Shown one piece after another: positions 13,725-49,927 of a DNA stretch of 50,108 nucleotides (its first letter is position 1; each line of letters starts with the position of its first letter). A program made the position numbers and the translations under genes. The notes under the pieces are model-generated. The model searched no databases and was not told where the DNA came from. It worked only from the letters and a program-made list of their open reading frames with translations. Source of the DNA: Deltaproteobacteria bacterium (lineage in GTDB: Bacteria > Bdellovibrionota > FAC87 > UBA2466); assembly GCA_043776735.1 (NCBI GenBank), contig JAYVQZ010000444.1, positions 1 to 50,108 on the forward strand. The letters are read 5' to 3'.

Positions 13725-15167
13725 TTACTCGCGAAAATCCTCGGCCTTGATGCTGTACTTTTGAAGCTTTCGTAAAAGGGTCTTTTTTGGAATGTTGGCG
13801 TGAAGCGCCGTTTGGTTAATGCGCCCTTTGAAGGTCTTTAACGCTTTGATGATGAACTCCTTCTCGAATTGCTCTTTATGGCTTTTATAATCAAGAGGGA
13901 TATCCTCGGCGGCCCCCGCTTCGGAGCCTGCCACCGCAAAATTTTCTGGATTCGAAAGTTCACTGTTAGAAGTCGAGCTAAATGAACCAGTCTCCTTTTG
14001 AGCGGGTTTCATATAACCGGGCATTGAAGCAAGAGTGAGCTGATCCGTGCTTTCAATAACGAAAGCATGCTCGATCACATTTTCCAATTCTCTTATGTTT
14101 CCTGGCCATCGGTGCTTTAATAAAGTCTCCATGGCTAGAGGAGCCACGCCGGAGATCTGTTTTTGGTGGATCAAGTTAAACTTAGTAATGAAGTGGCGAA
14201 CTAGACGTTCAATATCATCTTTACGTTCCCTCAAAGGGGGCAAGAAGATGGGAATTACGTTCAAACGGTAAAAAAGGTCTTCACGAAACGTGCCTTTTTG
14301 AATCGCTTCTTCAAGATTGCGGTTGGTTGCCGCAATGATGCGAACGTTCATTTCGATCTCTCGGTTACTTCCCACAGGAGTAAACTTGCGCTCTTGAAGC
14401 ACACGCAACAGCTTTACCTGCATCGCCGTTGATAAGTCGCCAATCTCATCAAGAAAGATAGTTCCCCCATCGGCGTACTGGAATCTTCCAATCTGTCTTT
14501 GATCGGCACCAGTGAAGGCCCCTTTTTCATGTCCAAAAAGTTCACTTTCAAATAGGGTTTCTGCAATCGAGCTACAGTTGATAGCGACGAGTTTATGGTC
14601 TTTACGGGCCGAATTGTAGTGGATCGCTCGGGCTACGAGTTCCTTACCTGTTCCGCTTTCTCCCCGAATCAAAACGGACGTATCCACTTTGGCCAGCTTA
14701 TGAATGATCGAAAATATTTTCCGCATCTCATTAGAGGCGCCGACAAATTCACCATTCTCAATTCGCACTATGGGTGCCGAAAACGCCATGTTTTCCACCA
14801 TAGCCTGTGCGTCGAGGGCTCGTTGGATCATCTCAACCAGATCCGCATGTTTTACCGGTTTGGCCAGATAGTTAAAGGCGCCATCCTTCACTGCGCGCAC
14901 GGCATCTTCGATGTTGGAGTAGGCTGTCATCAAAATGACCAAAATCGAGGGGTCCATCTCTTTGATCTTCTTTAAGCACTCCAAGCCGCTCATGCGCGGC
15001 ATGTTGACATCCATGAGTACTAAGTCGGCGCGCGAGGTGCTGAGAGTGTCGATGGCCTCAACTCCGTCGTTGGCGGTGCGAACGGCAAACCCATTCTCTT
15101 TGAGAACATCCGAGAGGTTTGCCCGAAGTTCCGGTTCGTCTTCTACTATAACAATCTGTCGACTCAT
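13725..15167 (-). CDS. Sigma-54-dependent response regulator (NtrC family: REC + AAA+ + Fis-type HTH)
   Basis: REC (DLVLMDVNMPRMSG), Walker A GESGTGKE, intact GAFTGA loop (HEKGAFTGA), C-terminal HTH (NQTALHANIPKKTLLRKL). Strong SD AAGGAG before the ATG. Confidence 0.9.
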   Translation of the reverse strand: MSRQIVIVEDEPELRANLSDVLKENGFAVRTANDGVEAIDTLSTSRADLVLMDVNMPRMSGLECLKKIKEMDPSILVILMTAYSNIEDAVRAVKDGAFNYLAKPVKHADLVEMIQRALDAQAMVENMAFSAPIVRIENGEFVGASNEMRKIFSIIHKLAKVDTSVLIRGESGTGKELVARAIHYNSARKDHKLVAINCSSIAETLFESELFGHEKGAFTGADQRQIGRFQYADGGTIFLDEIGDLSTAMQVKLLRVLQERKFTPVGSNREIEMNVRIIAATNRNLEEAIQKGTFREDLFYRLNVIPIFLPPLRERKDDIERLVRHFITKFNLIHQKQISGVAPLAMETLLKHRWPGNIRELENVIEHAFVIESTDQLTLASMPGYMKPAQKETGSFSSTSNSELSNPENFAVAGSEAGAAEDIPLDYKSHKEQFEKEFIIKALKTFKGRINQTALHANIPKKTLLRKLQKYSIKAEDFRE

Positions 15168-15179
15168 GTTTTCTCCTTA

Positions 15180-17120
15180 TTAATTTACTGGGAGCGACAC
15201 CGTGAAGGTGGAACCCCGCGCTAATTCGCTTTTCAAACTGATCGTCCCCTCGTGGAGCTCAATAAAATAGCGTGCTAAGAAGAGCCCCAACCCGGTTCCT
15301 TTAACCGATCGGGTGGTGTCGTTCTCGCAGCGATAAAACTTCATAAAAACTTTTTCCTGTTCCTCGGGGGCAATTCCTGGCCCCTGGTCTTTTACGGAGA
15401 TCCTAACCCAGTCATGGGACTCTTCGGAGAAGATCGTTATGGTGGAATGCGCTGGGGAGTATTTGATAGCATTTTCTATCAAATTAGAAATAACCCGACG
15501 GACAAGTTTAGTGTCGATCTTAATAGCAAAGAGTGGCTCAAGCTGTAACTGGAGTTCAATCCCCATTTCTTGCGCAAAGGCGGACTTAGCCTCCACAATA
15601 TCGCGAACCAGGGAATTAATGTCCTTTGTCGTCTTTTCCAAAGGGAGCCGATTGTTTTCAATTCGGGTTATATCAAGCAATGCCTCGACAAACTCCGTCA
15701 TCTCTTCGGTGGTTTTTAAAATCGAACGCAGTCCCTTTCCCTGGCGATCGGTGAGTGACTTAGCATCAGAAAGCAGTAGTTCGGCGCTGCCCTGAATGCG
15801 CGCGATGGGTGTTTTGAAATCATGGGAGATGAGAGACAAAAAATTGCTCTTCATTTTCTCCAGTTCCGCCAAAAGCTCGGTCTGCTCCTGATAGTGCCAA
15901 CGTTTTCGGTATTCATCTACGAGCCGAAAGGGAATGACGATATAGAAACCGGAGAAAGCCAGAATCAACGGATGGGACAGGTCGATCCAGGAATCATAAA
16001 AATACAAACAGGTAGCGCCAATGATAATTAAGGCGATGCTTTCTAGCATGACAAACCACATCGCTCTGCCGGGAGAAAAAAACAACGAGAACGAAATCGA
16101 TAAGAAGATAGCGACCAAAGAGAGCGTCCAATTGGTAATCGGGGATGTCTTTTTAAGGCCCTCATTCTTTATTAAGGTGGCAAGCCCCTGCGCGGCCCCT
16201 TCAAGGCCAGGGGTTTTTAACTGTTCGCGAGAAAAGGGGGTCAAAATGAAATCAGTGGTTCGCTTACTTGAAAGCGCCGAACCCATCAGCACAATTTTGT
16301 TTCGAAACAGAGCCGGATCCCAACGTTGTTCGGCCACTGCCACGCTCGAATAGATGGGGTAACGCTCGGCAGGACTACGCCACTTAATGTAGGTCTGCAC
16401 CGTTTCACCAAGTCGCTCATAACGATTGCCAGACCAGCACTGATCGTTGACGGGGAGCCCCCGTAGTTCGCAGGCCACTTTGGCATAAACGGTAGGTATC
16501 CCTTCCACAAGCACCATCGCCCTGCGGGTGACGGAATCGGCTCCGTAAGAAAAGGTATCGCGCGAAATAAACCCGGGAAGGTAACGCCCAGAGAGCCCAA
16601 GGCTTGCCGGCTGCGGGCGGCCCAGGCTCTCGTCGTCGATGTAGCCAAGATGAGTTCCTGGTATTTTGGCAAAGGCATCATGCAATTGAGTTAGCTCTGA
16701 AGCGCTATAGTGGCTGGATCCAAAAGAGCTCAACAAAATGACATATTTAGGATTGGCCTTTACCAAAAAATCAAAAACTTTCTGGATTTCAGGCGCTGGA
16801 ATCCTAAGCTCTCGAGCATACCGGAGGCTGCTGGGGTCGTCGTAAGCGATAAGCACAATTTGCGGGTTTAAGGTGTGGGAGGCAAAAAAGCGGGAAAGGC
16901 CGTCGAAAATAAGGCCGTTAAGGCCATCTAAGGGAATTTGAAGAAGGAGAAAAAAAACCAACAGGCCTAAAACAAAAGCCAAACTGTAAGTCCCTTTCGA
17001 CCGTATTAGGTCCAGGGCCAGAGTGAGGCGCCGGAGAAGTTCTCCGCCCAACGGAACGTGCAACGCCTTAGCTTCCATAAGAAAGCATTCCCAAACAATA
17101 GCTAGGAAAACCGCCGCCAC
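15180..17120 (-). CDS. Sensor histidine kinase with periplasmic CHASE2 domain
   Basis: N-terminal TM, then a CHASE2-like region (IVLIAYDDPS, DSVTRRAMVLV, IVLMGSALSS..D...TPF, GLEGAAQGLATL) followed by 3 TMs. H-box SHDFKTPIARIQG, N-box and G-boxes (DQGPGI, GTGLGL). Start uncertain (GTG 17120 or ATG 17078). Confidence 0.85.
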   Translation of the reverse strand: MAAVFLAIVWECFLMEAKALHVPLGGELLRRLTLALDLIRSKGTYSLAFVLGLLVFFLLLQIPLDGLNGLIFDGLSRFFASHTLNPQIVLIAYDDPSSLRYARELRIPAPEIQKVFDFLVKANPKYVILLSSFGSSHYSASELTQLHDAFAKIPGTHLGYIDDESLGRPQPASLGLSGRYLPGFISRDTFSYGADSVTRRAMVLVEGIPTVYAKVACELRGLPVNDQCWSGNRYERLGETVQTYIKWRSPAERYPIYSSVAVAEQRWDPALFRNKIVLMGSALSSKRTTDFILTPFSREQLKTPGLEGAAQGLATLIKNEGLKKTSPITNWTLSLVAIFLSISFSLFFSPGRAMWFVMLESIALIIIGATCLYFYDSWIDLSHPLILAFSGFYIVIPFRLVDEYRKRWHYQEQTELLAELEKMKSNFLSLISHDFKTPIARIQGSAELLLSDAKSLTDRQGKGLRSILKTTEEMTEFVEALLDITRIENNRLPLEKTTKDINSLVRDIVEAKSAFAQEMGIELQLQLEPLFAIKIDTKLVRRVISNLIENAIKYSPAHSTITIFSEESHDWVRISVKDQGPGIAPEEQEKVFMKFYRCENDTTRSVKGTGLGLFLARYFIELHEGTISLKSELARGSTFTVSLPVN

Positions 17121-18332: not shown

Positions 18333-20243
18333 CTAGTTTTCTATGAACGCCTTCAAGCGCTTACTGCGGCTTGGATGACGAAGCTTTCGCAACGCCTTGG
18401 CTTCAATCTGACGAATGCGCTCGCGGGTCACGTTAAAGTCCTGGCCCACCTCTTCCAAGGTGTGATCCGAGCTTTCGCCGATACCAAAACGCATACGAAG
18501 AACCTTTTCTTCACGAGGGGTCAACGTTGAGAGTACCTTACGAGTTTGTTCCGAAAGGTTGATGTTGGTGACCGCTTCCGAGGGAGAAATCATCGCTTTA
18601 TCTTCAATGAAATCTCCAAGATGCGAATCCTCATCTTCACCAATTGGGGTCTCTAGTGAAATAGGCTCTTTGGCAATTTTAAGGACCTTACGGACCTTAT
18701 CGACCGGCATCTCCATCTTCACTGCAATCTCTTCGGGTGTCGGTTCGCGTCCCAACTCTTGCACTAAGTAGCGCGAGGTTCGGATAAGTTTATTGATCGT
18801 TTCGATCATGTGCACGGGGATTCGAATGGTGCGCGCCTGATCGGCAATGGCTCGGGTGATGGCCTGACGAATCCACCACGTAGCATAAGTGGAAAATTTG
18901 TAACCACGGCGATACTCAAACTTATCGACCGCTTTCATGAGGCCAATATTGCCTTCTTGAATCAAGTCGAGAAACTGAAGGCCACGGTTTGTATATTTTT
19001 TGGCGATCGAAACCACCAGACGGAGGTTGGCTTCCACCAGCTCCGCTTTGGCTAGGTCAGATTTTCTTTCTCCGGCCACAATCATTTCATACATCTCGCG
19101 AAGTTCGCGAGCGCGCACGTTGGCTTCAATCTCAACGGCATCAATCTTTTTAATGGAGTTGTCGACGTAATGCTCAAGTTCAAGAAGTCCTGAATAGTCT
19201 ACGTTGAACTTCGCTTTGAGCTGTTCTTCGTATTTCTTATTCTTCTTGGCCTCTTTGACCATCCGCCGGAACTCGCCGATTCCGTCGCATTTAAGCTTTT
19301 TAAGCAGGGAGGCAATTTCGCCTTCCGCTTCTTCAATGCGCAGAACCTGCGTTTTAAACTTGGCTACGATCTTATTGATCGTCTTTCGGTTGAAGTTGAT
19401 CTCAACGAAAACATCCACGATGCTTTTGCGATTGGAGGCTAGCTTCTCACGAAGCTTTTTCCGATCGAGCGCATTCTGGCCTCCCTTAAGGAGCTTGGCC
19501 TCCATGGCGTGAACGGTCTTCTCAAAATTACGGACCAGCTTCATGCCGTCCAAAATCTTTTCCCGGCACTCCGCTTCGTTTAGACCGGCAAATTGATTAG
19601 GTGCTTCTTCGTCTTTTTCTTTTTCTTCAGGCTCTGCTTCAGGCTCAACCGGAGCCGCGGCGACGGCCTCGGCTCCCTCAGCCGTGGGCGCTGCATTTTC
19701 GTCAGGGTTTTCGGTTTCGGTCTCACCACCGCCGCGAAGTACGTCGCGGGCGCGCAGTTTGCCTTTTTCAATCTTATCGCCGATGCCCAAAAATTCTTTG
19801 ATACCCATCGACGAGTTTAGGATGACGTCGAGGACCTCTGCTTCACCTTCTTCAATACGCTTGGCGATTTCGATTTCGCCTTCACGGGTGAGCAGGGCTA
19901 CAGCGCCCATCTTTTTAAGATAAAGGCGAACGGGGTCGAGCCCGCGGGCCAGACCTTCGTCCTCTTCAGAGGCTGCAGGCGCGGCAGGAGCTGCTTCGGC
20001 CGACGGCGACGACTTATCGCCCTCTTTTTTGCCCTTTAGCTGCTTCTCGTTCTCAACGATTTCGATGTCGTTATCCTCAAGAAGTGTCATCACTTCATCA
20101 AGGTCATCCGAATTCGTGATCTCCTCAGGAAGGGCATCATTGATTTCCTCATACGTGAGGAAGCCCTTTTCTTTCCCGGAGGCGATTAGCTTTTGGAGCT
20201 CTTTTTTCTTTTCAAGCTTTGAAGACATACTTATTCGTCCCAT
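18333..20243 (-). CDS. rpoD: Primary RNA polymerase sigma factor sigma-70
   Basis: Region 1.1 ([12 protein letters not shown]), acidic spacer, region 2 ([47 protein letters not shown]), regions 3 and 4 ([14 protein letters not shown]...[27 protein letters not shown]). The start may be ATG 20228 (MSSKLEKK) rather than 20243. Confidence 0.95.
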
Positions 20244-20559: not shown

Positions 20560-21789
20560 ATGCCACTTATTTTGGTTCTGCTTCTTTTGGGACTGGGCAC
20601 CATCGGCGAAGCCGCCGCAAATTTCAATGATCTAAATCGCTATGCGGCAGAAGTCTTGCGCGAAGACGGAAAGCTTCAAAAAAGGCTCTCAGAGCTGCTA
20701 ATAGAAAAACTAGCTTTGGATTGGGGCAATACGCAGGAGTTGGCACGCGAAAGCATCCAGACCCTGGCGGAGAGCAAATACACTATCGAATTTCCCGCCG
20801 ACAAATCGTGTAATCCCTGGCCAGAGCTTTTGGAGACGGCAAAATACCGAAACCAACTCGAGGCTCAAATCGATCAAGTCGCCGATTTTTTAAGCGACTA
20901 TCATCATCGAAATTTAGGGAGAAATATTTCTTTTTTTAAGATTCGGCATGTAAACCTTCGCACCGCCAGTCGTTACTTGCGCCACAAATCCATAGAGTTG
21001 GACCGATTTAAGTCGGAACTGACCCTTCATGTGGGTCCCGTTCGCGCCTGGCTCGTGGGCAACGGCCCTCTAACCAAAGACAATCTCCATCCTCTCTCTG
21101 CAAAAGAGATCAAAGAAAAATGGAACAACGGCGAAATGTGGGCCGAAGACAGCTTGGCCAAAGAGATCGTGGATAAGGCAAGAAACCCAATTCGTGGTTA
21201 TTGGCCTCTTCTCAACCCGATCGGAGATGTGCGAGTGGCACTGCGAGAGGCTCTTAAACAAGAGGGTTTAAAACTGGTGGAAAAGATCCGGGGCTGGCTT
21301 CGCCAAGATGATCTTCAACTGCAACAAGGTTTATTGGCGGTGGCTGAGGGCTTAAAAAACAGGGAGGCGGCTAGCAAGATTCTTAAAAACAAATCAAATG
21401 CCGCACTCTTTGATATCGGTCAAAAATGGGTGGATAAATTAAACGACCCAAAGGTGCTTGAAGACATGGCCAATGCCGCAATCATGGCCTGCGTAAAAAA
21501 ACAGATGGTGAAACAGCGGGAAACCCAGACTAATCGAACCCAGGTGGGCCTCGTGAACGTAGAAAACTTTCATAATATTGACGTAGATTTTGCGGTAGGT
21601 GACACGAAAGATTTTCAGGAATATGTGGTTGTCCCAGAAAATATTGAGATCAATGTCACGCAGTACGGAATTGTGAATGTCTCCACGACGGATCGTGTTT
21701 CGGTAAGCGCTGCGTTGTCGGCGCTCACTTCTGCTGGGGCGTTGGAAAAAGCATCGCTGGCCTCGGTTATAAAATCGCTAAATCAATAA
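20560..21789 (+). CDS. Secreted hypothetical protein (orphan, no recognisable domain)
   Basis: ATG 20560 preceded by AAAGGGAG. Signal peptide MPLILVLLLLGLGTIGEAAA. 409 aa, mixed helical-looking sequence. Its 3' end overlaps the dnaG stop by 7 nt (convergent). Confidence 0.6.
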   Translation: MPLILVLLLLGLGTIGEAAANFNDLNRYAAEVLREDGKLQKRLSELLIEKLALDWGNTQELARESIQTLAESKYTIEFPADKSCNPWPELLETAKYRNQLEAQIDQVADFLSDYHHRNLGRNISFFKIRHVNLRTASRYLRHKSIELDRFKSELTLHVGPVRAWLVGNGPLTKDNLHPLSAKEIKEKWNNGEMWAEDSLAKEIVDKARNPIRGYWPLLNPIGDVRVALREALKQEGLKLVEKIRGWLRQDDLQLQQGLLAVAEGLKNREAASKILKNKSNAALFDIGQKWVDKLNDPKVLEDMANAAIMACVKKQMVKQRETQTNRTQVGLVNVENFHNIDVDFAVGDTKDFQEYVVVPENIEINVTQYGIVNVSTTDRVSVSAALSALTSAGALEKASLASVIKSLNQ

Positions 21790-23615
21790 GTGGTGGGGCC
21801 CCCTTGGCGGGCCGCTGAGAGGGTTTCGAGTAAACGAAGAGTCTCTTCTTCTTGGCCCAGTTTTTGGGCTAGCTTCACTTGGGTAGTGAGTTGTTGAATA
21901 GTTTTTTCTTTTCTACGACGAGTTAGGTCCCGTACTATTTGGGTGAGATTTTCCCTGGTAAAAATGGAGGGGTTTTTGACGACTCCGTCTTCGGCGGTGA
22001 GCAACGATTCAGAAAGTACCGCACTGAGTTCAGGATCAGTAACTTCACGGGCCATGGTTTCCAAAATGGGCTTCATCAACTCGGCAGAAGTCGTATTCTC
22101 AAGGATTGCAATCAGCGATCCCAGATATGGCTCAGAAACCTGATCCGAAAATTTCAACGGGGCCGCTTTTAAAAATTCTTCGGGGTATAAAATGGCCCCT
22201 TGGAAAAAAGCACGCCCCAACATGTCTTTTTTCCCCGCTGAGGCGGGAGCTTGCTTCTTGACTGGGCCAGTAGCAGATTGGGTTTTTTCCGGCGGCTTTT
22301 GTCCCATCTGTCGTTCCAAATGGGTGACCAAAGTTTGCGGAGACAGTCCCAACAATAAACCAACGTCATCCCAAAGCATCGCCCGATCCGGTCGGTTTCG
22401 GCTGGAAATGAGAATAGGGGTCAGCCGCTCCAGCCATTTTGCCTTTTGCTCCTGGCTGATGGGCCCCTGGCTGGAGATCTCCTTAAGCAATTGGGTCACC
22501 TGTTTTGGGGCTTGATCGACCAGCTCATAAAAGCGATCGGCCCCTTCGGCCTGAACAAACTCATCCGGATCTTTTCCGTCGGGAAGTTTAAGGTCTCTGG
22601 CCAAAATGCCGGAGTCGAGAAAAAGTGAGATCGATCTTCGCCAGGCTTCGCGCCCCGCTTCGTCGGGATCAAAAACGGTAACAACCCGTTTGGTAATGCG
22701 GCCCAATATCTTGCAGTGGTCTTCGGTAAGTGCGGTACCCATGGTGGCAAGAGCGTTGTCCACTCCCTTATCGTACAGGCCTACAACGTCCATGTAGCCT
22801 TCCACCAAGATAGCTTCGCCCTTTAACCGAATTCCTCGCTGATTTTCAGAAAGTGCATAAAGGGTGTTCTTTTTGGAAAAAAGAGGTGTCTCGGGAGAAT
22901 TAAGGTATTTAGGCTGCTTTTCATTCCCCTCTTTGCCGGGAAGCAGCCTGGCGCCAAAACCAACCACCTGCCCGTCCGCATTTACGATCGGGAACATGAG
23001 CCGACCACGAAAGCGATCGTAGCCATCATTTTTCCCATCCGTACTTTGAATGACAAGACCCGCCGAGATCAGCTCCGGGGTCGTAAAGCCTTTGGACTTA
23101 AGCCCCTCTTTTAAGGTGGACCAAGCATCAGGCGAGACACCGATCCTAAACTTCTTAACGGTTTCCCAAGAGATGCCGCGGGACTCCACATATTTTCGTA
23201 CGGCCTCGTACTCTGGCTTCTTTTCGAGAAGGTAGTGGTAGTACTTGGCCGCGATATCATTGGCTTCCATCAGCCTGAGTTCTTCAGGATTAGTTTTGGC
23301 TTTAGGAACGTAGCTAGATTTTTTAGACTGAACGATCTCAATGCCAGCTTTTTTTGCTAACCGTTCGACCGCTTCGGGAAACCTAAGCCCCTCAATATTC
23401 ATAAGGAATGTGAAAATGTTACCGCCGCTATGGCAGCCAAAGCAGTGGTAAATCTGCTTGAGCGGTTGGACATGGAATGAGGGGGACTTTTCTTTGTGAA
23501 AAGGGCAAAGCCCTGTCATCCCGGTACCGCTTCGTTTTAGCGGGACGTAAGTCTGGATCAGTTCAACGATATCAATCCGTTCTCTGATTTGGCCTAATGT
23601 CGACTCGTCAAACAC
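21783..23615 (-). CDS. dnaG: DNA primase
   Basis: Zinc ribbon CPFHKEKSPSFHV...CFGC, TOPRIM EGYMDVV...DPDEAG. Position in the rpsU-dnaG context. Confidence 0.95.
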   Translation of the reverse strand: MFDESTLGQIRERIDIVELIQTYVPLKRSGTGMTGLCPFHKEKSPSFHVQPLKQIYHCFGCHSGGNIFTFLMNIEGLRFPEAVERLAKKAGIEIVQSKKSSYVPKAKTNPEELRLMEANDIAAKYYHYLLEKKPEYEAVRKYVESRGISWETVKKFRIGVSPDAWSTLKEGLKSKGFTTPELISAGLVIQSTDGKNDGYDRFRGRLMFPIVNADGQVVGFGARLLPGKEGNEKQPKYLNSPETPLFSKKNTLYALSENQRGIRLKGEAILVEGYMDVVGLYDKGVDNALATMGTALTEDHCKILGRITKRVVTVFDPDEAGREAWRRSISLFLDSGILARDLKLPDGKDPDEFVQAEGADRFYELVDQAPKQVTQLLKEISSQGPISQEQKAKWLERLTPILISSRNRPDRAMLWDDVGLLLGLSPQTLVTHLERQMGQKPPEKTQSATGPVKKQAPASAGKKDMLGRAFFQGAILYPEEFLKAAPLKFSDQVSEPYLGSLIAILENTTSAELMKPILETMAREVTDPELSAVLSESLLTAEDGVVKNPSIFTRENLTQIVRDLTRRRKEKTIQQLTTQVKLAQKLGQEEETLRLLETLSAARQGGPTTY

Positions 23616-42320: not shown

Positions 42321-43244
42321 CTAAAGAGCAATCTCTCGGACTTTTGCCACAATGCACTTTGCAGAGAAACCATATTTATCATAAAGCTCTTTAGGATCCC
42401 CTGACTCGCCGTACGTATCTTGCAGCCCAAGTCGCACCAGCTTGCAGCTTAGCCCTTCTTCGGCCAACACTTCGGCCACCGCAGAACCAAGGCCGCCTAT
42501 CACCATGTGATCTTCAATGGTGAAAATGTATTTGCACTGCTTCCCCAGACTTCGCACCAAAGCTCGATCTATGGGCTTAATGGTGTGCATGTCCACAACC
42601 CAAGGACTCAGCCCAGTCAGCTCTTCACTAGCCTTCATTGCCTCATTTACGCCAGCGCCAGTTCCAATTAGAGCAAGATCTTTTCCTTCTTTCAGAAGAA
42701 TGCCCCGGCCCATTTGAAATACCCCTGGAGATCGATAGAGCGAGGGGAGTTTTTGTCGCGTAAGCCGCAAATAAACTGGGCCTTGGTGTTCCACTGCAAA
42801 TCGGACTGCTGCCTGAGTGGTGGCTTCGTCGGCTGGATTTAAAATGACCATTCCCGGCAGTCCACGCAAGACATTCATGTCCTCAAGACCCATCTGAGTA
42901 TAGCCATCGTCGCCGATGCCAAGTCCTGCATGCGTGCCTACCAACTTAACGTTAGCTCGAGAGTACCCCACAGAAACGCGAATGGTCTCGTAGCGCGTTG
43001 CCAAAAAAGCGCCAAAACTACAGCAAAAGGGAATCAGCCCCGTAAACGCCATGCCGGCGGCCGTTCCTATCATGTTGCTTTCGGCAATTCCCATTTGGAA
43101 AAAGCGATCGGGATACGCCTTTGCGAAAATAGCGCTCTTAGTACTGCAGCTTAGGTCAGCATCCAAAACAACGATATTGGGGAATTCGCTCCCTAGCTGT
43201 TTAAGTGCTTCTCCAAAAGCGTCTCGTGTTGCTCGCTCAGACAT
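42321..43244 (-). CDS. Transketolase, C-terminal (pyrimidine-binding) subunit
   Basis: RDAFGEAL, FQMGIAESNMIG, HAGLGIGDDGYTQ. ATG 43244 overlaps the N-subunit stop by 8 nt. Confidence 0.9.
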   Translation of the reverse strand: MSERATRDAFGEALKQLGSEFPNIVVLDADLSCSTKSAIFAKAYPDRFFQMGIAESNMIGTAAGMAFTGLIPFCCSFGAFLATRYETIRVSVGYSRANVKLVGTHAGLGIGDDGYTQMGLEDMNVLRGLPGMVILNPADEATTQAAVRFAVEHQGPVYLRLTRQKLPSLYRSPGVFQMGRGILLKEGKDLALIGTGAGVNEAMKASEELTGLSPWVVDMHTIKPIDRALVRSLGKQCKYIFTIEDHMVIGGLGSAVAEVLAEEGLSCKLVRLGLQDTYGESGDPKELYDKYGFSAKCIVAKVREIAL

Positions 43245-44094
43245 GACGGCCTCCTGCGGCATCCAATTCAACTAGGCAACGCTCAAGCTCTTCGGGGGTC
43301 GGTGCTACTCCGTGCCAGCCGATTTTGCCTTCCATAAAGGAGATGCCTTTGCCCTTAACCGTATTGGCAACGATCATCGTCGGCCGTGATTCTTCTTTCT
43401 TGGCCTTGTCTAAGGCACCAAGCAATTGTGTAAAATCGTGGCCATCAATCTCTTGAACCGCCCAACGGAAAGCTTCCCATTTCTCCTTAAGGGGGTGGAT
43501 GTCCATCACTTCTTCCACTCGACCGTCAATTTGACCCTTGTTGTGGTCTAAGAAAACGATGAGGTTGTTAAGCTTGAATTTGGGGGCGGACATTGCCGTT
43601 TCCCAAATCTGGCCTTCTTGAGATTCCCCATCGCCAATGACACAAAACACTCGAGCGTCTTTCTTTTGGTGCTTCAATGCTAGCGCGATGCCTTGGGCAA
43701 TCGAAAGGCCCTGGCCCAAAGAGCCGGTTGAGGCCTCAACTACGGGCATTAAAAACCGATCGGGATGCCCTTGAAGCCGCGAATTGGTCATTCGCAGAGT
43801 CATAAGATCTTCTTCCTGTAAACTCCCTTTTTGAGCCAAAATGGCATAAAGAGCTGGTACGCCATGTCCCTTTGAAAGGATGAACCTATCTCGGTCCTCC
43901 CAGGAAGGGTCCTCGGGCTTCATTCGGATTTCTGTAAAAAACAGAGCCACTAGGATGTCGATGAGCGAAAGCGAGCCGCCGGGATGACCCGACTTAGCCT
44001 TCGTAATCATCTGGAGTATCTGTTTGCGGCATGAGACCGCGATTTTCTGGAGTTCAGCTAGGGAAGGTTTTTCCAACATGACGGGAAGATGCAT
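43237..44094 (-). CDS. Transketolase, N-terminal (TPP-binding) subunit
   Basis: SGHPGGSLS, LSKGH, GSLGQGLS, GDGESQEGQIWE. Confidence 0.9.
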   Translation of the reverse strand: MHLPVMLEKPSLAELQKIAVSCRKQILQMITKAKSGHPGGSLSLIDILVALFFTEIRMKPEDPSWEDRDRFILSKGHGVPALYAILAQKGSLQEEDLMTLRMTNSRLQGHPDRFLMPVVEASTGSLGQGLSIAQGIALALKHQKKDARVFCVIGDGESQEGQIWETAMSAPKFKLNNLIVFLDHNKGQIDGRVEEVMDIHPLKEKWEAFRWAVQEIDGHDFTQLLGALDKAKKEESRPTMIVANTVKGKGISFMEGKIGWHGVAPTPEELERCLVELDAAGGRHV

Positions 44095-44158
44095 GAACCT
44101 AACCGCATTTTCAACCCTTCCCCTTGCAGAAATTTTAAGGCTCCGCTAGTTTCGCGCC

Positions 44159-44899
44159 GTGTCCGGATTTTTCGCCCTATTTTCAGCTCTTAGCGCCATT
44201 CTCCTGGTTACGTCCTTAGGTACCGGTTTGACCGGAATCGCCTTATTTGGCGTTTCTCATCTGATGTGGGGCCTGGGCTCAGTGCTTTTGGCGGTCTCTG
44301 TTCATTGTTTAATCTTTGGCATTTTCACGGGAGCAGGTAAAGACGCCCGGGAGCTGTCCCAAGACCTTAAATTGGATACTGACCTGTCGCTACGCATTAA
44401 AGCGTTCCGTAAAGACGTATTCCCGCCGGCCCTTTACAGCATATTGCTATTAGTAGTGGGCGCTGTAATGGGGGGGGCTGCCCATACGCCCACCATGGCT
44501 CGGGTTCACATGGCCATTATGATTTTTACCGTAGCCTACAATCTCAAATCCTTTTGGACGGAATACCGTGCCGTTGCCGAAAACGGTCGTTTGGTGCGTG
44601 CTTTAAATGAGTTGGCCAGTAATGCGCCGGCAGAACTAAGTACCGCGGCGCCAAAGGAACTTGAGATTCTTAACTCCGCCACTGAAGAGCTTGATTGGGG
44701 AACCCACGTTTTCGCCTTAGGCAGCTTCTTGGTCTTTATGGGGATGAACGTTTGGCTTCCCTACCTCTATTTTCGCTTTGTCGTAGGGTACTTCTTATTG
44801 CCGCTATGGCCTTTTTTATTAGGCTCCGGTTTGCTTATCGGCGGCGGTTTTTACCTGCGGAAGCGCTATGGTGCGTTTCGCCCTTCGTTGAAGCAGTAG
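44159..44899 (+). CDS. Hypothetical polytopic membrane protein
   Basis: GTG start. About 6 hydrophobic helices. No recognisable motif. The last 65 nt overlap the convergent rhomboid gene. Confidence 0.5.
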   Translation: MSGFFALFSALSAILLVTSLGTGLTGIALFGVSHLMWGLGSVLLAVSVHCLIFGIFTGAGKDARELSQDLKLDTDLSLRIKAFRKDVFPPALYSILLLVVGAVMGGAAHTPTMARVHMAIMIFTVAYNLKSFWTEYRAVAENGRLVRALNELASNAPAELSTAAPKELEILNSATEELDWGTHVFALGSFLVFMGMNVWLPYLYFRFVVGYFLLPLWPFLLGSGLLIGGGFYLRKRYGAFRPSLKQ

Positions 44900-46142
44900 C
44901 CTTGGCTCCGTCACTAAAGCTAGAAAGCTTTCCTAGTAGTAATTCAATTTTTCGGCCGGCCTCGCTCTCAGGAGGAAGCGCCTTTTGGTATTGGCGCACT
45001 AGTTCCACGATAAGGGGCTGTTCTTCTTGATTGGTTAGTCTCTTAGCAAGTCGAATTATGCTGTCATAAGGGAGAGCACTTAACCATTTAGCGGGAAGCG
45101 GTTTCTTCTTGTTGAGCAGCTCTACAATCACAGCCTTCATGTCGTCGGTGCGGAGACGGATAAACGTGGGAGAGAAAAAGGCGAATATTTTTTCTCGATC
45201 GGTATCGCCAAGAATATCGCAATTTTTTGCGGTGAGTTGGCAGACCTTCGATTTGATTTTGTCGTTGTAGCGGTTGATTTCAAGCAGATCCATCCAAGTG
45301 GAAAGCGGGGTAAACACCGGATCAAAAATTTTGGGGCGCACCAAACGCGCCCAATAAAGGAATTCTCCGCGCGTGTGAATAAAGACCGGCCAACGTTGAA
45401 AAAAACGCAGGAAAAAGGCCAGTATCATACCCGTACTAAAACCGACAACATGTGCAATGTGATCTACGCTGTCGAGACGATTTAGAGCTGGCATGAGCTG
45501 AGAAACCGAGAACATCAATTCCAGCATCAACACGTCAAAAAAGAAAAACCAACTAGTCTTGAGGTTGATAAAGCCTCGCTTGCTTGGAAACCAAAAGAAA
45601 TACCGGGTTCTATAATGGAAGTTGTAAATGTAGTAGGCACCCATCAGTGCGAATAATCCACCGCTGGAGCCTACGTGGGGAATGTATCCCGAGCTTTCTG
45701 TGGAGACTAAAATACTAAAGAGGAGCCCAAGGCTTCCTCCGATAATGAAAATGGCGAATGCGCACAAAAAGGGGATGAACGTCGAGCAGATTCTAACTCC
45801 GGCAAAAATGCCAATCAGATTCAGACTGAGGTGGAGGAGACTACCGTGAATAAAATTGGCGTAGAGAAGCCGTTTTACGTCCCAATCTGCTTTTGCTGGG
45901 GCGATGCGAAGCAACGGGCGTAACTTTAAAAAGTCAGCCGCATTTCTCTCAAAGGTGGGCGCGCCTGACTGTTCGGTGAGAAGATAGTTTTGAAGACTCT
46001 CAATGTAGTCCGCGTCTTTACGGATCATGTCGGAGGTTTCTAAAAAGGCGATCCCCAACAATATGACGAGCACAAGGCTTGGCCAGAGCATGGGGGCTCG
46101 GCCTTTAGGGACTTCCGGCGTAACTGGCACCAGGAGAATCAT
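44835..46142 (-). CDS. Rhomboid-family intramembrane serine protease with about 170-aa C-terminal cytoplasmic extension
   Basis: HGSLLHLSLNLIG (HxxxN), catalytic GSSGGLFALMGAY (GxSG) and AHVVGFSTG (His). ATG 46142 with AGGAG 4-5 nt upstream (track start GTG 46160). Confidence 0.8.
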   Translation of the reverse strand: MILLVPVTPEVPKGRAPMLWPSLVLVILLGIAFLETSDMIRKDADYIESLQNYLLTEQSGAPTFERNAADFLKLRPLLRIAPAKADWDVKRLLYANFIHGSLLHLSLNLIGIFAGVRICSTFIPFLCAFAIFIIGGSLGLLFSILVSTESSGYIPHVGSSGGLFALMGAYYIYNFHYRTRYFFWFPSKRGFINLKTSWFFFFDVLMLELMFSVSQLMPALNRLDSVDHIAHVVGFSTGMILAFFLRFFQRWPVFIHTRGEFLYWARLVRPKIFDPVFTPLSTWMDLLEINRYNDKIKSKVCQLTAKNCDILGDTDREKIFAFFSPTFIRLRTDDMKAVIVELLNKKKPLPAKWLSALPYDSIIRLAKRLTNQEEQPLIVELVRQYQKALPPESEAGRKIELLLGKLSSFSDGAKATASTKGETHHSASAGKNRRR

Positions 46143-46149
46143 TGCACTC

Positions 46150-46722
46150 CTATGGAACACTTAAAATTCTTTTGACCACCGTTTGGGCGGTAAGGTCGTG
46201 CAAAGCTCGAGCGTCATCACGGATAAAGGCCATCCCCCAGCCCAGCGCAAAGGGCAGTGTAGAGAGGGGCTTACCAATCAGTTCTCGAACAATGGCTCTA
46301 CCAAATCCGATGCGTGAGCCGGTCTTAGCATCCACAACGCGCAGGCCAAGGAGAAGCTTTCCTGGGCTGCCACCAAATGCGGAAAGCGTGGCGCAAAAAT
46401 AGAGAAAAAAGAGCAACCCATGAGCGACGTGCTCAAAAAATGGCAATAGTTGTTCTGTCTTGAGCAATTCCTGCTTTGGCAAAAATTGAGAGACTAAGCT
46501 CAGTTTTTGCAGGTTTGCCAGAAAATTTGGGCCCATCGAAGTAAAGGTGTGGTGGATTCCACTCCACAACAACCAAAACAAGATCGCGTCGAGAAGAAAA
46601 GCTCCTGTTCGGATCCAAAAATCCGCATTGGGACAGTCCAAAAAATGGTCGTCTTCGGCCTCAAGCAGCGCTTCCGAGATCGTTTTGGGCCGGGTGGGCC
46701 CTCGGGGAACGTAAGTGCCCAT
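46150..46722 (-). CDS. RDD-family membrane protein
   Basis: RTGAFLLDAILF (R..D), GGSPGKLLLGLRVV, ALHDLTAQTVV (D). This is the canonical RDD pattern. ATG 46722 shares 1 nt with the upstream stop (TGATG). The track ORF extends to 46830. Confidence 0.75.
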   Translation of the reverse strand: MGTYVPRGPTRPKTISEALLEAEDDHFLDCPNADFWIRTGAFLLDAILFWLLWSGIHHTFTSMGPNFLANLQKLSLVSQFLPKQELLKTEQLLPFFEHVAHGLLFFLYFCATLSAFGGSPGKLLLGLRVVDAKTGSRIGFGRAIVRELIGKPLSTLPFALGWGMAFIRDDARALHDLTAQTVVKRILSVP

Positions 46723-47981
46723 CAGCGACCTCTCCGCAGTCCCGTAGCGTCGAATAAGGCTAAGATTTTTTCTGCCTCTTCTTCCGCTTCTGCTGGCGCC
46801 ATTAGCTCCCCCTTTTCTTTGGAGAACCATGGAGTCAACGAGCGTTTGTGCTGCTCGTGGTAGCGGATTAAGCGAAGGGAGGCTTCAGTCACTTCGGCCA
46901 CAGTCCCTTCCTGTGTCCAAAAGTGGTTTTCTAGCTGATATTCGCGTAGTTCCCTTTTTTGTCCGAAGAAAAACAGTAAGGTTCCCGCATCTAGAAGTGA
47001 GGGATAAAAGTTTTCAAGTTTGGGAACGGTAAGAAGGTAGCGGAGTGAATTTTCCATCGCAAAGAAAGGAAGAGGACGTTTGAACGGCTTTTTGAGGAGC
47101 GCCTTTTCCAACTGACTCATTTGATCCCGAGTTCCCTGCGGTAAACTCCATGGATTTTTCTTCGTATCAAAGAGCCGTTTGACCGCGCCTTCCCGCTTTT
47201 CCCAGACCTTAAGGATCCCTTCGCGCATTCTTTCCCAGCACTCGACCTCTAAGGCGCCGCCCAAGAGTTGGGTGGCGATTCGACCCAACTGGGTCGAGTC
47301 AACGGCCGAGGGTTCCGTGGGCGCGATTGAGCCAAACCATTCCGATAAAAGCTGTAGTTCTTTGGCCCTTTGCCCAAAACCCAGATCCCTCTGCACCATT
47401 TTGGGAATGGAAGGCCGTGGGGCTGCCGGAGCCGGAGCCGTGTTGTTGAACTCAATCCGTTGTGGCGGCGGCTCTAGATCCGGAATTGGCGTTTCTGGGG
47501 TGGACGAGGTGGCTTCAAATTGAGGCGACATCATCGCGGAATCTTCGATCTCCGACGCTTGAGCCTCTGCTTCAAGAGTGCCCAAGTCGGTGATCACTGT
47601 AGGTTCTACCCCATCCTCTTCCATTGGACTAAGTGGGGGTGATTCCATTTCCGGGGCTGAGTTTTCCACGACGACGGGCACGCAAAGCTCAGCAAGAGTT
47701 TTTTGACTCCAACTTTCGCTGGTTAGGTTCTCTAAATCGAGCAAGATCTGGCAGTAGATCTCCTTACACCTGTGGAAGCTTGCGGCGACATCTTGAAGCG
47801 ACTGAGGCAAATCAGCGCGTTCGTAGTCACCCGAGGCTTCTTCAAGCGCTCGACCCAATTGATCAAGAGTGGCCTCTGCCAAGTGTTCGGCCTCGGCATA
47901 AGGCTCCGCTATCAATTGAACCACCAGCTCATGAATAGGAGAGCTGGACGTCGTCTTAGTATTTTCGTCGTTGGAGAACAT
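46722..47981 (-). CDS. Acidic cytoplasmic hypothetical protein (two folded-looking domains joined by a Pro/Glu/Ser-rich linker)
   Basis: 419-aa ORF. No TM or known motif. The ATG is 1 nt after the upstream stop (TAA-C-ATG). Confidence 0.6.
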   Translation of the reverse strand: MFSNDENTKTTSSSPIHELVVQLIAEPYAEAEHLAEATLDQLGRALEEASGDYERADLPQSLQDVAASFHRCKEIYCQILLDLENLTSESWSQKTLAELCVPVVVENSAPEMESPPLSPMEEDGVEPTVITDLGTLEAEAQASEIEDSAMMSPQFEATSSTPETPIPDLEPPPQRIEFNNTAPAPAAPRPSIPKMVQRDLGFGQRAKELQLLSEWFGSIAPTEPSAVDSTQLGRIATQLLGGALEVECWERMREGILKVWEKREGAVKRLFDTKKNPWSLPQGTRDQMSQLEKALLKKPFKRPLPFFAMENSLRYLLTVPKLENFYPSLLDAGTLLFFFGQKRELREYQLENHFWTQEGTVAEVTEASLRLIRYHEQHKRSLTPWFSKEKGELMAPAEAEEEAEKILALFDATGLRRGR

Positions 47982-47982
47982 G

Positions 47983-48261
47983 TTATTGCCTAATGATGCA
48001 CTCCTGGCGCAGTTCTTGGAAAAGCAGCCGTTTGGCTCGGCCTAACCATTCTTCAACATCTCTTAGATTGAGCCCACGAGCGCGCGATAGCTCCACCACA
48101 GTCACTCCGTTGAAATACTCTGAGAGTAGACTTTGGCTATCGATGTCCAGTTGGTTTAGGGCTTTGTCGAAGGTCGACATCACCCGATCCACAGCCTCTT
48201 CGGCGATGGCACTTTGGGCTAACTCACTGACCTCTTCTTGGAAGGAATCTTCTCTTCGCAT
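47983..48261 (-). CDS. Small protein consisting of an acidic helix plus a sigma-70 region-4 (4.2) type HTH, with no region 2
   Basis: LDIDSQSLLSEYFNGVTVVELSRARGLNLRDVEEWLGRAKRLLFQEL follows the ECF region-4 template (L..r..v..l....g.s..EiA...g.s.gtVk..l.RAr..L). I prefer ATG 48261 (AAGGGAG 7 nt upstream) to the track start at 48291. Confidence 0.6.
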   Translation of the reverse strand: MRREDSFQEEVSELAQSAIAEEAVDRVMSTFDKALNQLDIDSQSLLSEYFNGVTVVELSRARGLNLRDVEEWLGRAKRLLFQELRQECIIRQ

Positions 48262-48395
48262 CGGTAACTCCCTTTTAATGCGTTGCTCCATACAAGAGGC
48301 CTATCGGTGGCTTTGATGCGGTGCTTAACAGAAATTTGATTAGATTTTTTAGCTATGCTAAGTAGTGAACTTCATTTCGAATTGAGGACTGTAGG

Positions 48396-49154
48396 ATGAG
48401 GCTGTATTTAGCGTTTGCGTCATTTTTATTATTCGCCGGGTTGTTTTTTACGAGTTCCTGCTCTCATAAAGACGTGAATCCTGAGAGTCCTGACGCCCTT
48501 TTTCAGGATGCTGAGGAGGCGTTTAAAGATGAGAAATACCTAATAGCAATCGAACGTTACCGCGATATTAAGAATCGCTTCCCCTACAGTACCCGGGCTA
48601 CTGACTCAGAGCTCCGCATCGCTGACGCCTTTTTTGAGCAAGAGACCTATATTGAGGCCGAAAGTGCTTACGAGATCTTCAAAGAGTTACACCCGACACA
48701 CCCTAAAATTGACTATGTGCAGTATCGGATAGGGCTTTCTCTTAACAATCAGATACCCTCAAACTCGACTCGCGATCTTACTGCGGCGCAGCGCTCTATT
48801 GATGCGTTCAATGTATTGCTGGAAAAGTATCCAAACTCTTCCTACATCACTAAGGCACGCGAACTAATTTTTGCCGCACGACAAAAGATGGCTGAGCATG
48901 AGCAATACGTGGCTGATTTTTACTATCAGCGTCATCACTACCTCTCGGCAACCTACCGCTACTCCGCTTTGCTTCAAGAGTTTCCAAATATGGGATATGA
49001 TGAGGAAGCTTTATTTCGGTTAGGCAAGAGTTACGTAAACGTAAAGATGTCCGACAATGCGAAAGACATCTTTAGGCGACTTGTCGCCCGTTTCCCCAAC
49101 TCAAGCTACCGAGCTGAGGCAGAGTCGCTAATAAAAGACATTTCCAAGAATTGA
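48396..49154 (+). CDS. bamD: Outer membrane protein assembly factor BamD (YfiO lipoprotein)
   Basis: Lipoprotein signal ending FFTSSC. TPR-like repeats with the BamD pattern (Y..A...Y..I...FP.S..A....L.IA.A.......EA...Y..F...HP.H...DY..Y..G). Confidence 0.8.
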   Translation: MRLYLAFASFLLFAGLFFTSSCSHKDVNPESPDALFQDAEEAFKDEKYLIAIERYRDIKNRFPYSTRATDSELRIADAFFEQETYIEAESAYEIFKELHPTHPKIDYVQYRIGLSLNNQIPSNSTRDLTAAQRSIDAFNVLLEKYPNSSYITKARELIFAARQKMAEHEQYVADFYYQRHHYLSATYRYSALLQEFPNMGYDEEALFRLGKSYVNVKMSDNAKDIFRRLVARFPNSSYRAEAESLIKDISKN

Positions 49155-49198
49155 TTCTGTTTTTTCGGAATCTTTCCTGAGCGAAGCGAAGGATCTCC

Positions 49199-49927
49199 AT
49201 GGACTCACGCGCTCCCTCCGTAGATGAGTTGTTGCGAATCGCCCGCGAGGATATCGCCCGCAATTCTCTTTCTTCCGCGGAAAAAACTCTGGAGCAGGCG
49301 ATTTTAATGAATCACCAAGAGCCAGAGGCTTTTCATTTGCTCGGCTACGTTTATTCCAAACGTGGAAAATTCAAAAAGGCAATACTAGCCTTCCAAAAAA
49401 CTTTGAATTTGGATCCGTTTCATACCGATGCCGCCATTGCGTTGTCTAGCCTTCTCAACGATGTGGGCAAGTATAAAGAAGGCGCCGCTGTCTTTTTCAA
49501 AACAAAAAAGCGGCTCGACGAAACCGCCCCGGGGCACGATCCTCGCATTAACGAAAACTTAAGTAAGCGTCATTACGAGCTAGGGTTGCTCTACATGCGC
49601 TTTGAGCGGTTTAGAGAAGCCCACCACGAATTTTCCAAGGCCTATCACCTGCAAAGCAGCAACCTTTCTGCAGCCGTCCAAATGGCCAAGTGTCTGGCTC
49701 GTAGCGGAGAAAAGCAGAATGCTATTGAGTTTTTGAGAAAAACAATTGAGTCCCACCCTGACCATGTCGAGGCAAAACTACAATTGGGTATTCTCTACCA
49801 TTCTTCGCAAAAACTAAAAGAGGCCAAGCGGCTTTGGGAAGAGGCGCTGACCCAAGAGCCCGAAAATAAGTCGGCTCAAATGTACTTAAGCATGCTTGAG
49901 TACGAACCCTCGGTGAGCCGTCTGTGA
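49199..49927 (+). CDS. TPR-repeat protein
   Basis: Several 34-aa TPR units (AFHLLGYVYSKRGKFKKAILAFQKTLNLDP, HYELGLLYMRFERFREAHHEFSKAYHL, KLQLGILYHSSQKLKEAKRLWEEAL). Confidence 0.7.
   Translation: MDSRAPSVDELLRIAREDIARNSLSSAEKTLEQAILMNHQEPEAFHLLGYVYSKRGKFKKAILAFQKTLNLDPFHTDAAIALSSLLNDVGKYKEGAAVFFKTKKRLDETAPGHDPRINENLSKRHYELGLLYMRFERFREAHHEFSKAYHLQSSNLSAAVQMAKCLARSGEKQNAIEFLRKTIESHPDHVEAKLQLGILYHSSQKLKEAKRLWEEALTQEPENKSAQMYLSMLEYEPSVSRL

Follow-up and report, generated by a model that had tools for sequence, protein, structure and literature searches.

What could an intramembrane protease have to do with a fragment of a sigma factor? The question is raised by four genes on the minus strand of a 50,108-nucleotide (nt) stretch of DNA from a Deltaproteobacteria bacterium (GTDB lineage Bacteria; Bdellovibrionota; FAC87; UBA2466; assembly GCA_043776735.1, contig JAYVQZ010000444.1, positions 1 to 50,108), hereafter the window. 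In this locus, a short protein resembling region 4 of sigma factors (g1), an acidic orphan (g2), a membrane protein of the RDD family and a rhomboid protease are encoded one after another with hardly any space between the genes. A first-pass annotation, made from the sequence alone, took the four genes for one transcription unit and saw in them a signalling module, by analogy with the intramembrane proteolysis that controls sigma factors. Here we argue that the genes very likely form a single operon, that this operon appears to be driven by a promoter of the FliA (sigma-28) type carrying an operator-like element of its own, and that it can be regarded, tentatively, as a membrane-linked regulatory module of the Bdellovibrionota.

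A very probable single operon and its gene boundaries

With the starts adopted here, the four genes are as follows:
47983..48261 (-), g1, 92 amino acids (aa), a sigma-70 region-4 domain of the extracytoplasmic function (ECF) type without region 2
46722..47981 (-), g2, 419 aa, the acidic orphan
46150..46722 (-), g3, 190 aa, the RDD-family membrane protein
44835..46142 (-), g4, 435 aa, the rhomboid protease

A mechanical list of open reading frames (ORFs) gives longer products for three of them, namely 102 aa for g1 (47983..48291; the start adopted here is internal, at 48261), 226 aa for the RDD protein (46150..46830; adopted ATG in frame, at 46722) and 441 aa for the rhomboid (44835..46160; adopted ATG at 46142). 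The shorter starts of g1 and the rhomboid are favoured because the homologues match them. In particular, relatives of g1 are 92-97 aa long and begin with M(R/K)(R/K), and the ATG at 48261 is preceded, at a distance of 6 nt, by GGGAG; the relatives of the rhomboid all open with MILLVPxSPEVP. The stop codon of g1 is separated from the start of g2 by a single nucleotide (caaTAAcATG; caaTAAcATGttc in the minus-strand read), the stop codon of g2 overlaps the start of the RDD gene by 1 nt (cgcTGATGggc), and a 7-nt gap lies between the RDD stop codon and the rhomboid start (ccaTAGgagtgcaATG; minus-strand read, ccaTAGgagtgcaATGatt), with AGGAG running across the stop codon. The sequence thus agrees with the packing of the four minus-strand genes as the first-pass annotation had described it, and its four domain assignments, to sigma region 4, an acidic orphan, RDD and rhomboid, are correct by the Pfam, family and fold evidence given below. 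Between positions 44000 and 48500, sigma-70 promoters and intrinsic terminators are predicted as often as expected from shuffled sequence, so that there is no evidence of internal units in the operon; a scan of positions 44000-49200 against Rfam gave no match, which means that the 5' untranslated region (UTR) of g1 is not a known RNA element.

Is this arrangement peculiar to one genome? To answer this, 44 loci were gathered, annotated with family hidden Markov models and freed of duplicates, which left about 35 distinct Bdellovibrionota loci. The order g1-g2-RDD-rhomboid recurs throughout these loci, down to 43% rhomboid identity: the RDD gene lies directly upstream of the rhomboid gene in 35/35 loci, a relative of g2 precedes the RDD gene in 32 of 33, and g1 is the first gene, upstream of the g2 slot, in all 23 loci that extend far enough. 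The junctions are kept as well. The RDD and rhomboid genes share a 4-nt ATGA overlap in 30 of the 35 loci (0-7 nt in the others), g1 and g2 are mostly -4 to +2 nt apart, and g2 and the RDD gene mostly 1-9 nt. Since the junctions are kept across the loci and no internal promoter or terminator signal rises above chance, a single operon is very likely, as the first-pass annotation had it, and the RDD protein and the rhomboid appear to be a translationally coupled, obligatory pair. The co-occurrence of the rhomboid and RDD genes with those of the 92-aa and 419-aa proteins, which the annotation had offered as a test of its proposal, is therefore found in about 35 loci, with the caveats that the flanks are constant and g2 is variable.

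The proteins of the block differ in conservation, the median identity to the window protein being 68% for transketolase and 62% for BamD in the flanks, 49% for the rhomboid, which is the best conserved of the operon's four proteins, 47% for a convergently encoded membrane protein, 40% for the RDD protein, 35% for g1 and 27% for g2. The named relatives of the rhomboid belong to Bdellovibrionaceae, Bdellovibrionales or Bdellovibrionota metagenome-assembled genomes (MAGs), and the only two species genomes with g2 patterns are Bdellovibrionota-type MAGs.

A FliA-type promoter with an operator-like element

The strongest functional clue lies in front of g1, and it was overlooked by the first-pass annotation, whose account of the packing stands nevertheless. 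The features concerned are:
48302..48328 (-), a sigma-28 (FliA)-type promoter, TTAAGCACCGCATCAAAGCCACCGATA, with a -35-like TTAAG at 48328-48324 and a -10-like CCGATA at 48307-48302
48314..48319 (-), an operator-like element, GCATCA, in the promoter spacer (family consensus TGCGTYA)
48276..48281 (-), a repeat of this element, GCATTA, located within the predicted 5' UTR

The promoter is an exact match to TTAAG-N16-CCGATA, the consensus of 140 mapped attack-phase promoters of B. bacteriovorus that were assigned to FliA/sigma-28 (Karunker et al. 2013, PMC3627812), the consensus being that of B. bacteriovorus and the host of the window an uncultured relative. It is the sole site of this kind with at most one mismatch in the 50-kb window. 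When the intergenic regions between bamD and g1 are aligned, TTAAG(C/T)-N-CCGATA(A/G) is seen pointing toward g1 in every locus; specifically, the promoter is present in 23/23 loci with 0-1 mismatch and an invariant 16-nt spacer, 37-83 nt before the g1 ATG. Altogether, 389 kb of distinct loci contain 25 such sites, 23 of which are the g1 promoter and 2 of which lie elsewhere. The operon thus appears to be transcribed from a FliA/sigma-28-type attack-phase promoter, its dependence on FliA in this organism being presumed from the match to the consensus.

The promoter spacer carries a signal of its own. In 22 loci, TGCGT(C/T)A occupies spacer positions 8-14, where it is as conserved in position as the promoter hexamers are, and the general FliA consensus lacks it (promoter table of PMC3627812). 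A further GCRTYA copy, in either orientation, follows 36-52 nt after TTAAG in 17 of the 22 loci, the chance expectation being about 0.03-0.1 per locus. These repeats look like an operator for a dedicated regulator, and we infer that g1 is the obvious candidate for it.

The only locus with a broken operon, L010, bears directly on this point. Here, a phytochelatin-synthase-like gene (Pfam, 4e-37) has come to lie after g1, together with a DMFA2_C gene on the opposite strand (L010 3930-6338), and the 127 nt before the RDD gene hold a separate promoter, TCAAC-N16-CCGATA with a full GCCGATAA -10 (L010 6412-6441), the spacer of which contains TGACGC, that is, a TGCGTYA-type element (GCGTCA) in inverted orientation. 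As the RDD-rhomboid pair has both a promoter and an element of its own, co-regulation with g1 was kept after the separation. This locus provides the best evidence here that selection, and no accident of position, keeps g1 and the RDD-rhomboid pair together as one regulatory unit. What is new in this analysis is the FliA-type promoter in all 23 loci, the operon-specific TGCGTYA element and the separate promoter of the split locus.

On the other side of the same intergenic region, bamD and a TPR gene diverge from g1 in 22/22 loci, so that an envelope-biogenesis pair shares its control region with the operon. A conserved CTGTG(C/G)TAA on the bamD strand (window ~48340-48395, all aligned loci) looks like an extended -10-like signal (TGnTAAnnT) for bamD.

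In B. bacteriovorus HD100, an orthologue of the operon could not be mapped in the promoter tables of PMC3627812. Table S2 of that work lists Bd2735, a hypothetical protein of 93 aa, as the first gene of the two-gene FliA-promoter operon Bd2734-Bd2735; it is a candidate counterpart of g1 by size only, and its promoter is devoid of TGCGTYA. Similarly, no connection to the rhomboid family considered here could be established for Bd2426, which is described as a "rhomboid-like protein" with raised expression in a host-independent strain.

The membrane pair

The RDD protein matches Pfam PF06271 at 1.8e-19 (70.9 bits, cut-off 24.1), which places it firmly in the family, and the RDD signature is kept in an alignment of 34 sequences (R in WIR, D in LLD, D in LHD). 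Its cytoplasmic juxtamembrane N-terminal tail carries the conserved motif AE..H..DCP.AD.

The rhomboid consists of two parts:
aa 1-250, nt 45393-46142 (-), a core of six transmembrane (hydrophobic) segments
aa ~251-400, nt ~44943-45392 (-), a C-terminal domain, within an extension of ~170 aa the last ~30 aa of which are a variable tail

The core matches Pfam PF01694 (MEROPS S54) at 5.1e-16, with 59.6 bits against a cut-off of 22.6, over residues 94-251 of the 441-aa ORF, and all 42 rhomboid relatives match the same model; the wider family counts more than 140 clusters that are related at 43-74% identity over the full length. The catalytic residues and those of the second transmembrane segment are invariant in the 42 sequences, namely S160 in GSSGG (G158-x-S160-x-G162) of the fourth transmembrane segment, H231 in AHVVG of the sixth, and H104 and N108 in HLSLN of the second. 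The catalytic site is accordingly intact and the protein is predicted to be a protease; the dyad of Ser and His that the first-pass annotation had noted is shared by all 42 relatives. The six hydrophobic segments and the basic residues that flank them place both termini in the cytoplasm (by the positive-inside rule and the established topology of GlpG), so that the predicted topology is GlpG-type and the C-terminal domain shares its compartment with g1 and g2. Fifteen positions of this domain are invariant among the 42 relatives, none of which matches a Pfam family in it. A relation of the domain to the C domain of g2 was considered and rejected, the hhalign probability being 0.1%, and so was an assignment of the protein to the rhombosortases (TIGR03902), which it matches with 21.1 bits against a cut-off of 84, with no GlyGly-CTERM substrate nearby.

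Two observations at the ends of the rhomboid gene deserve mention. The first 12 residues of the protein, MILLVPxSPEVP (window 46098-46142), are nearly invariant in the 42 relatives at 43-74% identity; this sequence, unusual for a cytoplasmic tail, may be a docking or regulatory motif. At the other end, a gene for a multi-span membrane protein of 246 aa (window 44159-44899, plus strand) is convergent to the rhomboid gene, the two overlapping by 65 nt at the 3' end of the latter. This protein has no family match; its gene is found at the same position in about 24 loci, with an overlap of up to ~130 nt in some. The overlap covers the non-conserved tail of the rhomboid, and the convergent gene is conserved to its end. 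The convergent membrane protein may be functionally linked to the operon, for example as a candidate substrate.

The sigma-region-4-like protein and its acidic neighbour

Is g1 a sigma factor? The window protein alone gives a match to Pfam Sigma70_r4_2 (E=0.008, 16.3 bits) that is under the gathering threshold of 25.7, as well as matches to several ECF sigma TIGRFAMs in NCBIfam, likewise below threshold and always on the C-terminal region 4. The family is clearer: among 23 members from related loci, 14 match Sigma70_r4_2 (best 1.4e-7) and 5 match Sigma70_r4. A seven-sequence profile compared with the PDB returned chance-level matches only, until the wider family was used. The AlphaFold2 model of g1 has a mean predicted local distance difference test (pLDDT) score of 81.5 and consists of four helices, a long acidic N-terminal one, which takes up the 37 residues before the helix-turn-helix, and then three more. 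When it is compared with the PDB by Foldseek, region-4 domains of sigma factors account for almost all of the best matches (template modelling scores 0.57-0.72, root-mean-square deviation ~2 A), among them SigL sigma-4 (3hug), AlgU, SigK and region 4 of E. coli sigma-E on DNA, including the entries 6in7 and 2h27. By family matches and fold, then, g1 carries the region 4.2 helix-turn-helix of the sigma-70 family, and K77 and R78 of its recognition helix are nearly invariant in the family alignment. No match to Sigma70_r2, the model of the region responsible for core binding and -10 recognition, was obtained for g1 or any of the 23 family members; having no region 2, g1 is not a sigma factor. 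A comparison of g1 with the window's own RpoD by hhalign was non-significant, and the alignment fell on region 3.

The second protein, the fast-evolving g2, has an isoelectric point (pI) of 4.75 and can be divided as follows:
aa ~15-100, nt ~47682-47939 (-), N domain, helical, with a conserved RCKxxYC
aa 101-195 (-), linker, variable, disordered, rich in proline and acidic residues (18 Pro and 18 Asp plus Glu)
aa ~196-419 (-), C domain, with the conserved motifs ECWERM, NSLRY and LLDAGTLLFFFGQ

A word-indexed search yielded 7 close relatives, and an exhaustive profile search 87 representative clusters of 107-613 aa. The family has no match in Pfam (88 members) or, for the window protein, in NCBIfam, and sequence searches of the PDB with profiles of 7 and 88 sequences gave none either. 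Profile searches have thus put neither g1 nor g2 into an unrelated well-characterised family; such an assignment is what the first-pass annotation had named as speaking against its proposal. In the AlphaFold2 model of g2, the N domain, ~90 aa long, is predicted with confidence as a unit of three to four helices (pLDDT 85-90), the remainder is below 50 and the overall value is 51.5; as the model is of poor quality except in the N domain, Foldseek returned only noise.

Cysteine and histidine recur in the conserved motifs of the operon, in RCKxxYC of the g2 N domain, in ECWERM (one Cys) of its C domain and in AE..H..DCP of the cytoplasmic N-tail of the RDD protein. These residues may form a metal or redox site that the partners have in common.

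What might the operon do?

The reading that we favour, tentatively and as the most likely one, is that the operon is a Bdellovibrionota-specific membrane-linked regulatory module. Its mechanism may be envisaged in the following way. The RDD-rhomboid pair would act at the inner membrane, and the cytoplasmic parts, that is, the C-terminal domain of the rhomboid, the N-tail of the RDD protein and g2, would set how much g1 is free. Freed g1 would act as a sigma-4 mimic at RNA polymerase or at an anti-sigma-type partner or, alternatively, on the operon's own TGCGTYA sites as feedback. The protein-protein contacts, the protease substrate and the target of g1 are all elements that we infer. The support for such a module comes from the junctions, the order kept down to 43% identity, the promoter in 23/23 loci, the element, the split locus L010, the sigma-4 fold and the C-terminal domain of the rhomboid. 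The operon as such appears to be undescribed and lineage-specific, its function being suggested by its parts.

Several observations weigh against such a module. The flanks are as syntenic as the operon itself, with bamD and the TPR gene divergent from g1, the convergent membrane gene of 245-256 aa and a split transketolase, so that descent can explain the order and gene order alone is no proof of a functional link. No hydrophobic or transmembrane segment is predicted in g2, and no anti-sigma or other known fold was detected for it by Pfam, PDB profiles or Foldseek; accordingly, g2 does not look like the membrane-spanning anti-sigma factor of intramembrane proteolysis in ECF sigma/anti-sigma systems, with the limit that the fold search used a poor model. 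Furthermore, g2 is the variable part of the operon, ranging from 156 to 602 aa across loci: it is absent in L010, represented by the C domain only in L008 and L009, and ~200 aa long in five loci, and where it was lost or shortened, g1, the RDD protein and the rhomboid with its C-terminal domain stay unchanged. No substrate candidate for the rhomboid was identified. Finally, the g1 family is acidic (median pI 4.9) and its helix-turn-helix half is near neutral, a charge that is seldom seen in proteins binding DNA on their own and that makes such a role less likely; g1 fits a protein-binding mimic better. Of the signalling module with intramembrane proteolysis of a sigma-like factor that the first-pass annotation had envisaged, therefore, the operon, the domains and the synteny stand, whereas a g2 without transmembrane segment or anti-sigma fold, flanks that are equally syntenic and the local dispensability of g2 tell against it.

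Could the RDD protein and the rhomboid simply look after other membrane proteins? Known bacterial rhomboids work in the quality control of membrane proteins, as do YqgP/GluP of B. subtilis with MgtE and GlpG/Rhom7 of Shigella, and the pair might similarly check the quality of inner-membrane proteins that the motile attack phase requires, or process them, in which case g1 and g2 would be local autoregulators at most and not an output of proteolysis. This is an unlikely explanation but one of some weight, as the two membrane proteins are the invariant core of the operon, adjacent in 35/35 loci, mostly with the 4-nt overlap; they persist with a FliA-type promoter of their own in L010, where g2 was lost and g1 separated; the rhomboid is better conserved (median 49%) than g1 (35%) or g2 (27%); and the neighbours, bamD with its TPR lipoprotein partner, rpoD and dnaG, are envelope and housekeeping genes. 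It leaves unexplained, however, why the operon invariably begins with a sigma-4-like gene (23/23 loci), why an operator-like element stands at both promoters of the split locus and why the rhomboid has a conserved cytoplasmic C-terminal domain. The four genes might even be functionally unrelated, being co-transcribed within a compact, vertically inherited core chromosome where tight packing reflects streamlining of the genome. Indeed, the window also holds rpoD (18333-20243), dnaG (21783-23615), ribonucleotide reductase, radA and two tRNAs, and hence is core chromosome; in all relatives, every one of them a Bdellovibrionota MAG, the genes from bamD as far as transketolase and RadA keep the same order, and the position of g2 can be vacated, occupied by a truncated gene or invaded by foreign genes. 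The conserved order itself is a matter of phylum-level core collinearity and not of a mobile or portable cassette. Still, the absence of any functional relation seems rather improbable when translational-coupling junctions are kept at 43-50% protein identity, a dedicated promoter and operator are as strongly conserved as coding sequence, and the split locus has another such promoter.

Two further explanations revolve around g1. It could modulate the flagellar or attack-phase sigma factor, either by titrating a FlgM-like anti-sigma factor or by competing for the flap of RNA polymerase or the -35 element, and thereby provide feedback to the FliA regulon, the RDD-rhomboid pair being merely co-expressed. 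The FliA-type promoter and the sigma-4 fold with its acidic, decoy-like character fit this idea, and PhyR/NepR is a precedent for a sigma-like decoy, but g1 resembles region 4 of the ECF type (Sigma70_r4_2 in 14/23 members, ECF TIGRFAMs) and not that of the FliA/group-3 type (Sigma70_r4 in 5/23), neither a FlgM nor a FliA gene was found nearby, and g2, the RDD protein and the rhomboid would be left without use, so that the probability of this explanation is small. It is also tempting to think of a two-subunit sigma factor, such as SigO-RsoA of B. subtilis, in which g1 would supply region 4 and the N domain of g2 region 2; g1 is devoid of region 2, and the N domain of the adjoining, translationally coupled g2 is a confident three- to four-helix unit. 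This seems extremely unlikely, given that 0/88 members of the g2 family match Sigma70_r2, that the N domain is absent in L008 and L009 and the whole of g2 in L010, and that no sigma or anti-sigma structure was retrieved by Foldseek with the g2 model, although the latter is a weak test on a poor whole model.

Returning to the membrane-linked regulatory module, one may ask how far it can be taken. In its boldest form, which we consider a long shot, the operon would be a rhomboid-based switch from membrane to transcription in predatory bacteria. In the FliA-driven attack phase, an RDD-rhomboid complex loaded in the inner membrane would hold the sigma-4-only decoy g1 via g2; a membrane or envelope cue, for instance contact with prey or entry into it, would trigger the rhomboid and release g1; and g1 would then re-programme RNA polymerase or the availability of sigma factors and shut its own promoter via TGCGTYA, contributing to the transition from attack to growth. 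If true, this would be the first rhomboid-dependent signalling pathway of the sigma type and the first cellular role of an RDD protein as a protease partner.

Rhomboids occur in nearly all bacteria, and very few of them have a known function; the one described here has fixed genetic partners, an input by way of a FliA-type promoter and a plausible sigma-4-like output. For RDD proteins, there is almost no assigned biology beyond one report of an antiporter (PMC5996927). The operon therefore offers both families a concrete, testable context. It is a candidate for a conserved membrane module of the attack phase, and its promoter with the extra operator is a candidate component of the poorly understood switch from attack to growth. 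Even if the function should turn out to be housekeeping only, the operon would define a subfamily of rhomboids that is specific to the phylum and has a new domain in the cytoplasm.

Other genes of the window

Two further arrangements in the window can be noted. Transketolase is encoded by two overlapping genes, for an N-terminal part of 285 aa and a C-terminal part of 316 aa (42321-44094, minus strand), an arrangement found in all related loci, and a CHASE2 histidine kinase gene adjoins that of a sigma-54-dependent response regulator (13725-17120, minus strand).

Comparison with known systems

In the literature searched, no rhomboid was found to have an RDD protein as its partner or to be linked to sigma/anti-sigma control, nor was a split or region-4-only sigma factor found in such a set, in agreement with the first-pass annotation, which knew of no described equivalent. 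The operon can nonetheless be compared with several systems that resemble it in part.

One likeness in layout is to Sigma-E/RseA/DegS/RseP: a sigma-family domain encoded first in the operon, a partner next to it and an intramembrane protease, by which a membrane event could be passed on to transcription. Unlike that system, the protease here is a rhomboid (Ser/His) and not a site-2 metalloprotease, and it is encoded in the same operon; the sigma part is region 4 only, g2 has neither a transmembrane segment nor a recognisable anti-sigma domain, and an RDD protein is included. The resemblance to ECF sigma/anti-sigma intramembrane proteolysis is thus one of logic only, as region 2, a membrane anti-sigma factor and a site-2 protease were all found to be missing.

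YqgP (GluP), a B. subtilis rhomboid, acts with MgtE and FtsH; it has an extra cytosolic domain at the N-terminus and a C-terminal TPR domain outside the membrane. It shares with the rhomboid described here the possession of a large extra cytoplasmic domain with a regulatory or adaptor role, which in the latter may be presumed by analogy. However, the extension here is C-terminal, cytoplasmic and without a family match, and YqgP has neither an RDD partner nor a sigma-like gene. A likeness of another kind is offered by the rhombosortase/GlyGly-CTERM systems, in which a protease of the rhomboid family likewise has a specific set of partners, although the score against the rhombosortase model is far under its cut-off.

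With regard to g1, the PhyR-NepR-EcfG system is instructive. In PhyR, a receiver domain is joined to parts that resemble both sigma-2 and sigma-4, and the whole system is soluble; as may be the case with g1, a degenerate sigma-like domain does not work as a sigma factor but serves as a decoy that binds protein. In contrast to PhyR, g1 is region 4 alone, has no receiver domain and is linked to membrane proteins. As for transcription, the operon shares with the FliA attack-phase regulon of B. bacteriovorus the exact promoter consensus (PMC3627812), and differs from it by the additional TGCGTYA.

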